From: a virus
Taxonomy: Duplodnaviria > Caudoviricetes
DNA length: 64,000 nucleotides
IMG/VR virus record: IMGVR_UViG_3300032038_000007
Location: 1 to 64,000 of that record
Direction: 5' to 3' (one strand)
In this document: in pieces, positions 4,248-62,552 of the stretch
Layout: the number at the start of each line of letters is the position of its first letter
Numbering within the stretch: the first letter of the stretch is position 1
Notes under the pieces: model-generated
The model's input: only the letters and a program-made list of their open reading frames with translations
Database searches by the model: none
Told to the model about the DNA's origin: nothing
Made by a program: the position numbers and the translations under genes

Positions 4248-4398
4248 AAAGAAAGCAAAAGAATTATGGGAGGAGTAATCCTCCTTCTGCCATTAGATGT
4301 TCAACATCTAATTAAAAATTTGACTTTTATCGAAAATCGTAGTATAATCAAATCATCAAGTGAAGGAAAACACTTAAAAACCAGAAAGGACTTACCGA

Positions 4399-4758
4399 AT
4401 GAACGCTATGCAGAAGAAGATTGCCGCCCGTGCCGCCACCATCTCCGCCCTGTCCCAGATTCTCGAGGAACTCGCCGCCGTCCAGTTCGGAGACGCCAGC
4501 TTCGCGGTTCTCCAGAATGTGGAAGGTCAGGAGATTTGGACTGAAATCTCTGTGAAGGCGAAGGCGTTCACGCCCACCAAGACTTCCCCGGAATTTGACC
4601 CCTTCGTGGCCGCTGAGGAATGGAAGACTGACAAGGAAATCAAGGCCAAGGAGAAGGCCGAGAAGGCCAAGGAAAAGGCGGCGAAGATTGCCCGCGATGA
4701 AGCCCGTCGCGCCGCCAAGAACAACACCGAATCCGGAGAGGAAGAGGAGGGGGAGTAA
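4399..4758 (+). CDS. Hypothetical protein with Lys/Glu/Ala-rich helix
   Basis: Promoter 4320-4348; SD; strongly biased GC3-rich codons. Confidence 0.85.
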   Translation: MNAMQKKIAARAATISALSQILEELAAVQFGDASFAVLQNVEGQEIWTEISVKAKAFTPTKTSPEFDPFVAAEEWKTDKEIKAKEKAEKAKEKAAKIARDEARRAAKNNTESGEEEEGE

Positions 4759-6865: not shown

Positions 6866-7627
6866 ATGTATATCATGGTCATGGACACGGAAACCACGGG
6901 ACTGGAAAAGTGCTTCTGCTACGACTTCGGCTATGTCATCGTTGACACGGATACTCATGAAATCGTCAAGCGTGAGCACTACATCGTGGAGCAGATTTGG
7001 CACAATCTCGCCCTGTTTGAGAGTGCTTACTACAAAGAGAAGCGCCCCAACTATGTCCAGCTGATGCGGGCGCGGAAGGCCACCATGGATAAGTGGGGAT
7101 ACATCATGCGCAATGCGGCGCGTGATATTCGTGAGTATCATATCACTGATGCCTACGCCTACAATAGCACTTTTGACGACAAGGTTATCTCCTACAATTG
7201 CGATTGGTACAAGTGCATCAATCCTTTTGATACCGTGGCAATCCATGATATTTGGGGCTATGCTTCTCAGTTCATCACAAACTCCCCTGACTATCGCGCC
7301 TATTGCGAAGAGCACTCCCGCTTTACTGATACTGGAAATTACAGCGGGAGCGCGGAAAGTGTCTATCAGTTCATTTCCCTTGAGTTCGACTTTGTAGAAG
7401 ACCACATGGGGCTGTATGACAGCGAAATCGAAGCCGCGATTCTCCTCTACTGTCTGGACAAGGGCGCGAAATTGGGCGAAGACTACAAGGTGAATAAGGT
7501 GCTGCCCAGGGTGCAGGAGAAGCCCTTCACCATCAAAGTCAACGGTCAGGTGATTTATACCGGATTGTACATCAAGAGTTACAAGCGCAATGATGTTTAT
7601 AATTTCACAACTATCGAGGGGAATTAA
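6866..7627 (+). CDS. DEDDh 3'-5' exonuclease (paralog of 4911-5594)
   Basis: MDTETTG, AYNSTFD, EDHMGLYD; shares SxYYxEKxPxY and DFxEEH-like blocks with 4911-5594. Confidence 0.85.
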   Translation: MYIMVMDTETTGLEKCFCYDFGYVIVDTDTHEIVKREHYIVEQIWHNLALFESAYYKEKRPNYVQLMRARKATMDKWGYIMRNAARDIREYHITDAYAYNSTFDDKVISYNCDWYKCINPFDTVAIHDIWGYASQFITNSPDYRAYCEEHSRFTDTGNYSGSAESVYQFISLEFDFVEDHMGLYDSEIEAAILLYCLDKGAKLGEDYKVNKVLPRVQEKPFTIKVNGQVIYTGLYIKSYKRNDVYNFTTIEGN

Positions 7628-55993: not shown

Positions 55994-56091
55994 AATATTT
56001 GACTTTTTTAAAAAATTCTTATATAATATATATAGTGATGAGGGAAAGGAACCTGAATCACTAAAATAAAAAAATAAGGAGAGGACCTTAT

Positions 56092-56543: not shown

Positions 56544-56804
56544 CTTAGCGGTCGTCTGTGACAGCCGTCTGCAGAAAAAGCCACAGACGTATAGTGAGTC
56601 AACGTGAATGACTACCGGTAGTTCTACTATAACGTAGTTAGTCCGGAATAACATAGTAGGCAGTTTCCATATTTGCTGAACAAATATGGAAGTGCGCGGC
56701 AGCTTTTGAGAATGAGCCGTCTGGTTATGCGAAATAACTCGATTTGAGGAGCGTCGAATAGCTTCTTAGCCATGCTATACGAGGGTTATGGCATGGCTTT
56801 ACAT

Positions 56805-56894
56805 TGGGGCGTAGTTCAATGGCAGAACACCGGTCTCTAAAACCGTTATATCCCTCTGAAGGAGGTGGTCTGGGTTCGAGTCCCAGCGCCCTAG
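56805..56894 (+). tRNA. Amber suppressor tRNA (anticodon CUA), inferred Gln; Trp-like body with 23-nt variable arm
   Basis: Acceptor TGGGGCG/CGCCCTA plus G73; D-arm GTTC/GAAC; CGGT-CT-CTA-AA-ACCG (anticodon 56837-56839); T-arm CTGGG-TTCGAGT-CCCAG. Confidence 0.9.
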
Positions 56895-56943
56895 CTTACT
56901 CTATTAAAATAAAAATAATATGGAGCGTTTATCGCTCCACTAC

Positions 56944-59807: not shown

Positions 59808-60156
59808 ATCGCGCAAACTGTATGGTTTCGAGTGCATATACCAGATTGCTCGGCGCGTTATAAAAGAAGAGCAAAGTAAGCACACGGGATGGAAGGAAAC
59901 GAGTCACGTCCTTACCGGCCCTGAGTAGTTACAACGAAACGGGCGGGAGAAGCAGAAATAGTAACTGCACCCACATTACTTGGATTGTGGCTGAGCGCTA
60001 TATAGCTCGCCTAGTATGGGATGGAGGTTGGGGATGTTCCCCACCTCGGAACATAAAAGTAATGCTGTTCCAGTATGCAGTATTACTTAAAGTTCATAAG
60101 GGTTGCGTGTGAACCTCAAACTGGATAGGCCAAAAGCCGAAAGAAAACACGCATAT

Positions 60157-60533: not shown

Positions 60534-60880
60534 GCGGGTATGGTGGAATAGGCAGACACCACAGACTTTTGTAAAACAAAGAGCACTAGAATAGGAAACT
60601 TTCTGAGTGAATGCTGGCTAATTCGGTGAAAGTCCTTATGGGATAACGCCGAGCTAAATAATTGGTTTGCTAGACAGATAAATGTAAGCAATTAAATGAG
60701 TGTACAAGAGTCTCCTCAGCCAATTTAAATGTGTAGAGACTATATACCAGCCACCTAAGTCGTAAGATAAGGTGAAGACATAGTCCAGACTACAACGCGA
60801 AAGCGGCCATAGTAATATGGAGTAGTAAGAAAATCTGTTGCTCTCTGAGCGTGCCGGTTCAAGTCCGGCTACCCGCACCA
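60534..60880 (+). tRNA. tRNA-Leu(UAA) interrupted by a group I intron (exons 60534-60568 and 60830-60880)
   Basis: Spliced anticodon arm ACAGA-CTT|AAAA-TCTGT; long variable arm; ACCA end. Confidence 0.9.
60569..60829 (+). ncRNA. Group I self-splicing intron, 261 nt, no ORF
   Basis: P1 CUU/GAG with U-G at the 5' splice site; P3 GCTGG/CCAGC; P4 TTCGGTG/CGCCGAG; P7 elements GTAGAGACTA...GAAGACATAGTCC; terminal omega-G at 60829. Confidence 0.9.
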
Positions 60881-62051: not shown

Positions 62052-62125
62052 TGTCTCGTAGCTCAATTGGTGAGAGCAATCGCCTTATAAGCGATAGGTT
62101 CTGGGTTCAAGTCCCAGCGGGACAA
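62052..62125 (+). tRNA. tRNA-Ile(UAU)
   Basis: ATCGC-CTTATAA-GCGAT; promoter near 61992. Confidence 0.9.
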
Positions 62126-62313
62126 CTGTGCCACGCACGCTTAGACTCACCCGTGTACGCGGACCAAGCGTGGACTTACAAAAACGGAAAATCGTCGCCG
62201 TTTACAAGGACGCGACGGTCGAAGTGATTATCGACTCGATACGACCTGACTTTCGTAGGGCCAAACGGGATGCCGAAAAGAAAGCCTAATCAGCGAGTAT
62301 TTTCGGCTATTGA

Positions 62314-62386
62314 TGGGGTATAGCCAAGTTGGCAAGGCAACGGACTTTGACTCCGTCATTCGCAGGTTCAAGTCCTGCTGCCCCAG
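62314..62386 (+). tRNA. tRNA-Gln(UUG)
   Basis: ACGGA-CTTTGAC-TCCGT; U1-A72, G73. Confidence 0.93.
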
Positions 62387-62395
62387 CATTTATAT

Positions 62396-62472: not shown

Positions 62473-62537
62473 GCCGGGTCTGGGAGAGCCGCGGTTTTAT
62501 AAACCGCAGGTTGTCGGTTCAAATCTGACACCCGGTT
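62473..62537 (+). ncRNA. D-armless tRNA-like RNA with UAU anticodon
   Basis: Acceptor GCCGGGT/ACCCGGT; GCGGT-TTTATAA-ACCGC; T-arm GTCGG-TTCAAAT-CTGAC; 11-nt loop in place of the D-arm. Confidence 0.7.
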
Positions 62538-62552
62538 CTTAATAAAGGAGGA

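Follow-up and report, generated by a model that had tools for sequence, protein, structure and literature searches.

Architecture of the Amber Suppressor tRNA

The window analysed here, a stretch of 64,000 nucleotides (nt) that forms the first 64 kb of the tailed-phage record IMGVR_UViG_3300032038_000007 (166,616 bp, estimated to be 95% complete), encodes at positions 56805-56894 a tRNA with a CUA anticodon and an unusually long variable region (Table 1). ARAGORN places a 91-nt tRNA at 56805-56895 and assigns it the anticodon CTA, and the Rfam tRNA family RF00005 matches 56805-56894 with 56 bits (gathering score 29, E = 3.1e-10); the bases expected of this family, namely a cloverleaf with U8, A14, G18G19 and the T-loop UUCGA, are present. 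CCA is not encoded in the gene, as G73 is followed directly by CTT. The D arm is of the class I type, with a stem of 4 bp and a loop of 7 nt, and the anticodon stem consists of 4 bp with a C.U mismatch at its top (27.43). A prediction made from the sequence alone (the original prediction) had described an amber suppressor with a long, stem-forming variable region; ARAGORN, Rfam and the minimum free energy (MFE) cloverleaf agree with it on the tRNA, and the variable region of 23-24 nt (56846-56869) is predicted to fold as a hairpin. All 17 tRNAs of the whole record lie inside the window, and a second CUA anticodon, which could have accounted for decoding, is not among them. The gene is a real tRNA and the only amber suppressor of the genome.

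The label tRNA-Pyl given by ARAGORN derives from the anticodon alone and was rejected, as the gene has a standard cloverleaf with a long arm and TAG aligns with glutamine (see below); a pyrrolysine synthesis system was not searched for. In tRNA-Pyl the variable loop is 3 nt long and the D loop is small.

Table 1. Coordinates of the suppressor tRNA and its parts in the window, and of the CUA tRNA of phage G001 used as a natural control.
Feature	Coordinates	Strand	Basis or remarks
tRNA(CUA), 90 nt up to G73	56805-56894	+	ARAGORN, Rfam RF00005, MFE cloverleaf, family covariation in acceptor, D and T stems
Acceptor stem, 5′ strand UGGGGCG	56805-56811	+	Pairs with 56887-56893 (U1-A72, G2.U71, G3-C70); read from the sequence
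Anticodon arm CCGGU-CUCUAAA-ACCGU	56830-56846	+	Anticodon CUA at 56837-56839; read from the sequence and ARAGORN
Variable-region hairpin (putative spare anticodon arm) UUAUAUCC-CUCUGAA-GGAGGUGG-U	56846-56869	+	Predicted fold; conservation and covariation among 28 distinct arms
Arm apex CUCUGAA, anticodon-loop look-alike	56854-56860	+	Gln anticodon CUG at 56856-56858; family loop columns
T arm CUGGG-UUCGAGU-CCCAG	56870-56886	+	Compensatory changes at 5/5 T-stem pairs in the family
Discriminator G73	56894	+	G in nearly all family members
CUA tRNA of G001 (locus L071), the only one of that genome	10262-10354 of G001		8 nt after tRNA-Trp(CCA)

Meaning of TAG in the Phage

When TAG is read as sense, fragmented frames merge into open reading frames (ORFs), the longest of them with 5990 codons and 152 TAGs. 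In-frame TAGs are numerous in the late genes, and the early/replication block (approximately 81-110 kb) is almost devoid of them. When the portal gene, with its ten TAGs translated as X, was aligned with 120 full-length homologues of 62-73% identity, glutamine filled 679 of the 1200 cells in the TAG columns (57%, compared with a background of 4.4%) and was near-invariant at five of the ten columns; the other residues include Glu (240 cells), Lys (109), Ser (28) and Leu (1), and neither Trp nor Tyr occurs. In the alignment of TerL, for which homologues are more distant, the only conserved TAG column (column 74) holds glutamine in 53 of 55 sequences. These alignments show TAG to mean glutamine in this phage, as far as homologous proteins can tell, and uphold the original assignment to genetic code 15, with a CUA tRNA and in-frame TAG codons at glutamine positions of conserved genes. 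A serine, leucine or tyrosine identity conferred by the long arm, as in class II tRNAs, was rejected on the residues in the same TAG columns (Leu once, Tyr never, Ser in 28 of 1200 cells) and on the class I D arm.

Trp-like and Gln-like Parts of the tRNA Body

The likeness of the 5′ half to bacterial tRNA-Trp, noted originally, was recovered by blastn: of 5426 complete E. coli genomes, 5425 give the annotated tRNA-Trp gene (trpT) as top match, which covers query positions 2-41 with 37/41 matches (90.2% identity), and the matches among cultured phages are likewise tRNA-Trp genes. When the core without the arm was compared with 239 other tRNAs of related phage loci, tRNA-Trp(CCA) was closest. 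The suppressor differs in its anticodon arm from a tRNA-Trp(CCA) of a related phage (locus L002; CCGGU-CUCCAAA-ACCGU) by C35U alone, the two having the mismatch in common; the 5′ 26 nt show no particular likeness to Trp among phage tRNAs.

The suppressor had also been described as unlike the phage's own tRNA-Gln(UUG), located at 62314-62387, in the D and anticodon arms. This is correct, though the acceptor ends are almost alike: the first five acceptor pairs (except G2.U71) and G73 match. The U1-A72 pair and G73, which had been proposed as Gln-like and were read directly from the gene, are those of a genuine tRNA-Gln acceptor end, whereas the YUG expected in the anticodon arm of a genuine tRNA-Gln is replaced by CUA. 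By these comparisons, the suppressor appears as a mosaic that joins a Gln-like acceptor end to a Trp-like D arm and anticodon arm. The D arm and acceptor stem differ considerably in other relatives with this variable arm.

A Family of Long-Arm CUA tRNAs

When IMG/VR was scanned with the anticodon arm plus a portion of the D stem, 13 loci were returned, eight of which encode CUA tRNAs of 91-95 nt with an almost invariant arm and differing acceptor stems, and a scan with the arm motif only recovered further members with other D and T arms. In a scan unbiased for the arm, only CCGGTCTCTAAAACCG and TTCRA were fixed, with 16-31 free bases between them; it returned 46 loci that were dereplicated to 28 distinct arms on class-I-type bodies, and 30 distinct tRNAs were aligned. 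Compensatory double changes occur at all seven acceptor pairs, three of the four D pairs and all five T pairs of this alignment, and 92.5% of cells in the four standard helices are paired, compared with 72.4% in shuffles. On this covariation, the family members are to be regarded as diverged, functional tRNAs. The mismatch at the C.U position atop the anticodon stem is found in every member (30/30). Pair 1-72 is U-A in nine members, A-U in six, G-U or U-G in two and a mismatch in 13, never G-C or C-G, and position 73 is G almost throughout. Read from the sequences, a weak 1-72 pair combined with G73 is what marks the acceptor end of E. coli GlnRS substrates (PMC9976931).

The apex of the arm resembles an anticodon loop of tRNA-Gln. 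The 28 arms were anchored on their common centre, since MAFFT moves the arm by one column in variants with insertions or deletions and makes the alternative registers look similar. In anticodon-loop numbering, this loop-anchored count gives C25/U3 at position 32, U27/C1 at 33, C20/U8 at 34, U28 at 35, G28 at 36, A27/C1 at 37 and A24 with four others at 38. The only real variation in the apex is at wobble position 34, where C and U yield the two Gln anticodons, CUG and UUG. Genuine phage tRNA-Gln loops read CUUUGAC and CUCUGAC, beside CUCUGAA in the arm of the window tRNA. In the register with a loop of 7 nt, the closing pair is present in 28/28 arms, the second pair in 28/28 (C-G 19, U-A 4, G-C 4, A-U 1) and the third in 22/28, followed by A.G and then further U.G and A-U pairs; with a GAA triloop, the second pair is broken in six of the 28 arms. 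YUGA at the apex is constant in every register considered. The apex is, judged by these columns, the anticodon loop of a tRNA-Gln, and the arm is not a class II arm. Covariation affects every one of the acceptor, D and T stems, so the arm has been kept constant by selection and not through recent common ancestry.

The same long-arm suppressor is interrupted in four relatives (L022, L028, L030 and L032): an intron of approximately 190-310 nt follows CUCU in the anticodon loop, and only that of L028 reaches the Rfam group I threshold (50.5 bits). In L030 (~4340-4730), the 5′ exon equals nt 2-34 of the window tRNA and the 3′ half is nearly identical; its intron ends in the same 3′ sequence (…CCATAGTAATATGGAGTAGTAAG) as the group I intron in a tRNA-Leu gene of the window.

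CUA tRNAs of other builds were also encountered. Those with class II bodies (L048, L047/L061/L065 and L053; Ser-like GGAGAGAUGCCGGAGCGG…, or Leu-like) share the same anticodon arm and have ordinary class II arms with no anticodon-like loop, which suggests that TAG is read in those phages as serine or leucine, or as glutamine by way of the acceptor end. They form a further natural control, since the synthetases for such bodies do not use the anticodon. Arm-less CUA tRNAs of 72-75 nt with the same D and anticodon arms, G1-C72 and A73 are found at L006, L008, L009, L010, L012 and L020 (1410-1484).

Trp Anticodon Arms as Natural Controls

A related phage that is likewise TAG-recoded, G001 (IMGVR_UViG_3300028805_000058, 146,105 bp, loci L071-L081), has the same suppressor anticodon and a different arm. 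Its CUA tRNA and the neighbouring tRNA-Trp(CCA) have the acceptor stem, T arm and G73 in common, and the variable arm, GAGGU-GUCCAAA-GCCUC, is a 5-bp stem closed by a Trp anticodon loop; the gene resembles a tandem derivative of the phage's own tRNA-Trp to which an arm with a CCA loop has been added. In the G001 endolysin, aligned with 84 homologues, four of the five TAG columns hold Trp in 84, 84, 79 and 56 sequences (the last with Phe in 26), and one lies in a linker. In a second protein with 67 homologues, the five TAG columns hold Trp in 61, 62, 62 and 48 sequences (the last with Phe in 12) and Phe in 47 with Trp in 17, Trp accounting for 250 of 335 cells. Trp is found at nine of the ten TAG columns, aromatic columns counted, and TAG in G001 is, on this alignment evidence, read as tryptophan. 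The same CUA anticodon thus goes with TAG=Trp where the arm is of the Trp type and with TAG=Gln where it is of the Gln type, so that the two sets of alignments show a link between the arm triplet and the meaning of the codon. This TAG=Trp control appears to be new.

Among the aligned homologues of protein P0274 from G001, four to six public sequences carry glutamine exactly where all others carry tryptophan, probably reflecting TAG of related phages translated as glutamine under a code 15 setting chosen by the depositors. A further arm with CCA was seen at L046 (4091-4256) in the 607,744-bp phage G002, where two CUA tRNAs adjoin; the 88-nt one has the arm GGGC-GGCCAAAA-GCCC with an 8-nt loop containing CCA, together with G1-C72 and A73.

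Opal suppressors display the same arrangement. UCA tRNAs selected for a UCCAAA motif within their variable region were found at no fewer than 117 loci; among the matches listed, at least 37 are distinct and at least 27 have stems of 4-7 bp, all different, that directly close a 7-nt NUCCAAA loop. A scan for long-arm UCA tRNAs that was unbiased for arm sequence gave 71 distinct matches; 42 of these have Trp-like bodies, each with UCCA at the apex of its arm, and the remaining 29 are tRNA-Sec-like or due to chance. The correspondence between arm and codon meaning comes from protein alignments in the window phage (CUG apex, TAG=Gln) and G001 (CCA arm, TAG=Trp), and, in the opal cases, from the tRNA sequences.

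Host and Charging of the Suppressor

The original prediction had proposed a search of the genome for a phage aminoacyl-tRNA synthetase or release factor. The search covered the whole 95%-complete record and revealed no class Ib/Ic synthetase catalytic domain (GluRS/GlnRS or TrpRS/TyrRS), no GatB and no RF-1 domain, and phage-encoded GlnRS/GluRS, GatB, TrpRS/TyrRS or RF1/RF2 were consequently dropped as candidates. Since the phage has no synthetase, amidotransferase or release factor of these kinds, host enzymes must charge the suppressor. Large siphoviruses that infect Firmicutes (Geobacillus phage E3, Bacillus phages PBC2 and FADO and Enterococcus phage H1) have terminases with 31-36% identity to that of the window phage, Shine-Dalgarno sites precede the phage genes, and the phage's own tRNA-Gln(UUG) is one that we take to be Firmicute-like; by these sequence features the host is probably a Firmicute. 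The sole match of the arm in a bacterial genome lies on a 15.8-kb contig of a Bacillota metagenome-assembled genome, in which a GlnRS-type domain was not found, the completeness of that assembly not being established.

The identity elements read by GlnRS are U35, G36, pairs 1-72 and 3-70, G73 and pair 10-25, and the GluRS of B. subtilis relies chiefly on modified U34 (PMC9976931). A CUA anticodon weakens recognition by these Gln-charging enzymes, with U35 and G36 or U34 no longer on offer. There are two precedents: with two acceptor changes, GlnRS accepts an amber tRNA-Ser that keeps its long arm, and ThrRS recognises anticodon-like hairpins in the thrS operator, where the triplet decides which enzyme binds (PMC9976931). 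We propose that the normal anticodon arm (CUA) would read UAG on the ribosome and put glutamine into late proteins, while the spare hairpin would present a cognate Gln anticodon to the anticodon-binding domain of host GlnRS, or of a non-discriminating GluRS with GatCAB acting next. To complete the Gln identity set, the acceptor end would contribute its weak 1-72 pair and G73, and the long arm would be tolerated on the ribosome like that of class II tRNAs. It is probable, in our judgement, that the spare arm serves as a surrogate identity element for host GlnRS or GluRS on the single amber suppressor of this phage; we infer both the contact between synthetase and arm and its geometry. The U1-A72 pair of the window tRNA would fit GlnRS and GluRS with GatCAB alike, and the A.C and U.U first pairs of many relatives would fit GlnRS better.

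Several observations weigh against the proposed role of the arm. Nearest-neighbour energies calculated for the window arm favour a GAA triloop in which C34 and U35 are paired (approximately −6 to −7 kcal/mol, compared with −2 to −3 kcal/mol for the 7-nt loop), and the MFE folds of other Gln variants place YUGA in loops of 4-5 nt; because of these energies, an anticodon-like loop would need induced fit or a minor conformer. The 5′ strand of the arm is rich in pyrimidines and the 3′ strand in purines, so several registers pair well, and most of the covariation of the arm comes from a single pair. How a hairpin in the variable position would reach the anticodon-binding domain with the acceptor end in the active site is not evident from the geometry. 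Many family members have A.C or U.U at 1-72, at odds with the U1-A72 rule for GatCAB. Arm-less CUA tRNAs exist, one of them in the code-15 phage phAss-1 beside the long one (with a U1.C72 mismatch and G73), so that not every amber suppressor needs the arm. The control that combines CUA with a CCA arm is a single lineage: in a scan for more such tRNAs, only that of G001 was real and the other seven matches were due to chance.

The original prediction saw in the gene a natural route of the Su7 type. On such a route, a tRNA-Trp(CUA) would be charged by host GlnRS simply through U35, the weak 1-72 pair and G73, and the arm would be no more than a steric anti-determinant against TrpRS, SerRS or others, or would be trimmed. 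TrpRS approaches its tRNA from the side of the variable arm, where a long arm could clash. Part of this route stands, as the anticodon arm is a phage Trp arm with C35U, the E. coli gene most similar is trpT, the acceptor end is Gln-like, TAG aligns with glutamine and amber tRNA-Trp is known to be charged with glutamine (PMC9976931). The role assigned to the arm does not: an arm that merely blocks could have any sequence, yet 27-28 of 28 arms, for all the variation of their stems, retain the apex U-Y-U-G-A with its conserved Gln anticodon loop, and in G001 and the 42 opal suppressors, which need Trp charging, the arm bears a Trp anticodon, the opposite of what exclusion of TrpRS would predict. 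The same arm also sits on members with non-Trp bodies, so that the Trp body is not a trait of the family, and we consider this route unlikely as a whole. The alternative role once suggested for the arm, recruitment of a phage synthetase, fails on the lack of any such enzyme, GatB or release factor in the genome. Equally doubtful is that the hairpin binds a partner other than a synthetase (a phage protein, a modifying or processing enzyme, EF-Tu or the ribosome) or shields the tRNA against anticodon nucleases. Such a partner would account for the strong conservation of the arm, most phage genes have no known function, and a decoy loop might conceivably draw anticodon nucleases away; however, this would leave unexplained why the arm triplet tracks the amino acid of the stop codon (Gln with TAG=Gln, Trp with TAG=Trp and in UGA suppressors), and the arm occurs in unrelated lineages (phAss-1 and the window phage with its Firmicutes-phage-type terminase) in which no common neighbour gene was noticed. 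A Shine-Dalgarno mimic was examined and rejected: the 3′ strand of the arm, GAAGGAGGU, is a perfect Shine-Dalgarno sequence, and three of six non-tRNA matches to this motif are ribosome-binding sites, but the variants GAAGAGGG and GAAGCAGG lose it and keep YUGA.

Some features would suit a two-headed tRNA in which either hairpin takes the anticodon position, so that CAG and UAG are both decoded or the tRNA is charged in one fold and decodes in the other: the two hairpins adjoin and resemble each other (CUCUAAA in one loop, CUCUGAA in the other), the anticodon stem has a mismatch at its top in every member, and an extended arm stem could take in U43. Such a tRNA is very unlikely, as ARAGORN, Rfam and the MFE fold all place CUA in the anticodon position, a hairpin placed between the D and anticodon arms is without precedent and the phage already has a normal tRNA-Gln(UUG). 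Least credible of all is a functionless arm left as a neutral relic of a duplication or insertion; the opal-family arm does look like a tandem copy of an anticodon arm, suggesting an origin by duplication, yet the apex has stayed invariant while the acceptor, D and T stems changed by compensatory substitutions, and the stems of the arm themselves covary.

Beyond the reading of the spare arm by host GlnRS or GluRS in the window phage, we lean, with some reserve, towards a general tRNA design in which the decoding and identity anticodons lie on two hairpins and host GlnRS, GluRS or TrpRS reads the spare one and so sets the meaning of the stop codon (CUG or UUG, TAG=Gln; CCA, TAG or TGA=Trp). If this is true, the genetic code of a phage could be predicted from the arm and orthogonal suppressors could be built by arm swaps; anticodon-dependent synthetases could be steered by a hairpin outside the anticodon position, which bears on tRNA identity theory and genetic code expansion. 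Such a sequence rule, by which the code is taken from the suppressor tRNA, predicts TAG=Trp for G001, whose proteins would be mistranslated by pipelines that assume code 15.

Other RNA Elements near the Suppressor

The suppressor gene is separated from tRNA-Arg(UCU) by a 260-nt spacer (56545-56804, positive strand) without a credible ORF, and a promoter and terminator scan around the gene gave no match above chance on the positive strand upstream. Further downstream on the same strand, a tRNA-Leu(UAA) gene at 60534-60880 was missed by the plain tRNA scan, as its anticodon loop is split by a 261-nt group I intron (Rfam Intron_gpI at 60559-60809, 62.8 bits; recovered with the intron option of ARAGORN). 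A drum RNA (RF02958) at 60049-60155 (+), with 75.8 bits against a gathering score of 43, ends two bases before tRNA-Val in the tRNA cluster. At 62473-62538 (+), a 66-nt tRNA-like call (Ile, UAU at position 26) scores 29.9 bits, exactly at the Rfam threshold, and may be a truncated or degenerate copy of tRNA-Ile(UAU) at 62052-62126. A cow-rumen-4 RNA (RF02948, 73 bits) lies at 7110-7174 of locus L022, approximately 600 nt upstream of the split suppressor; on the corresponding side in the window, 56032-56081 gives a weak RF02948 match of 29.9 bits, below the gathering score.

Comparison with Known Systems

Phages whose TAG codon has come to mean glutamine (code 15) are said by Peters et al. to carry a suppressor tRNA-Sup(CUA). 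The described systems (Borges et al., 10.1101/2021.08.26.457843; phAss-1, PMC10607447) resemble the window phage in their phage-encoded CUA tRNA, late in-frame TAG codons at glutamine positions, standard code in early genes and lack of a phage synthetase. The 88-nt tRNA-Sup-CTA annotated in phAss-1 (PMC10607447) is a direct homologue of the window tRNA, arm included, with 89.9% identity over positions 14-82. These papers leave the charging of the suppressors open; in Borges et al. it is posed as a question, with synthetases rarely phage-encoded and host GlnRS or TrpRS supposedly 'repurposed'. A spare anticodon hairpin would be a concrete and directly testable answer to it for recoded phages. 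In a preprint on theta ribozymes, 19% of tRNA-Sup were predicted to be of the Trp isotype. Neither the long arm nor an anticodon-like hairpin is described in Borges et al., the phAss-1 paper, the zeta crAss-like phage paper, the theta-ribozyme preprint or a 2025 screen of 213 phage suppressor tRNAs (subscription journals being outside the search), and the design of a suppressor with a spare anticodon arm has apparently not been described in the literature.

The closest textbook suppressor is E. coli su+7 (supU), which shares with the window tRNA a Trp-type anticodon arm with C35U, G73 and glutamine at UAG, the 5′ 41 nt of the window tRNA being 90% identical to trpT. In E. coli tRNA-Trp, the first pair is A1-U72 and the variable loop is short (5 nt). 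The two suppressors differ accordingly: su+7 keeps the short variable loop and A1-U72, whereas the window tRNA has U1-A72, G2.U71 and a 24-nt variable region with a Gln anticodon loop, and it has relatives in which the same arm occurs without a Trp-like body. With class II tRNAs (Ser, Leu, bacterial Tyr and Sec) it shares a base-paired extra arm between the anticodon and T arms that the ribosome tolerates. SerRS reads the length and orientation of that arm, and the Ser and Leu synthetases ignore the anticodon; the window tRNA differs in its class I D arm, in a TAG that is not Ser, Leu or Tyr and in the conserved sequence of its arm apex.

The E. coli thrS operator offers a functional parallel, as it displays a cognate anticodon-loop hairpin outside the anticodon position, and a Met-like triplet placed there switched control to MetRS (PMC9976931); that mimic lies in an mRNA and represses translation, whereas the arm of the window tRNA lies within a decoding tRNA and would promote aminoacylation. 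The opal tRNAs (UCA) with a CCA hairpin have the same architecture as the window tRNA, with a stop anticodon in the normal arm and a sense anticodon in the extra arm; their Trp arms have clear stems of 4-7 bp and 7-nt loops, whereas the Gln arm of the window tRNA is short and ambiguous in register.

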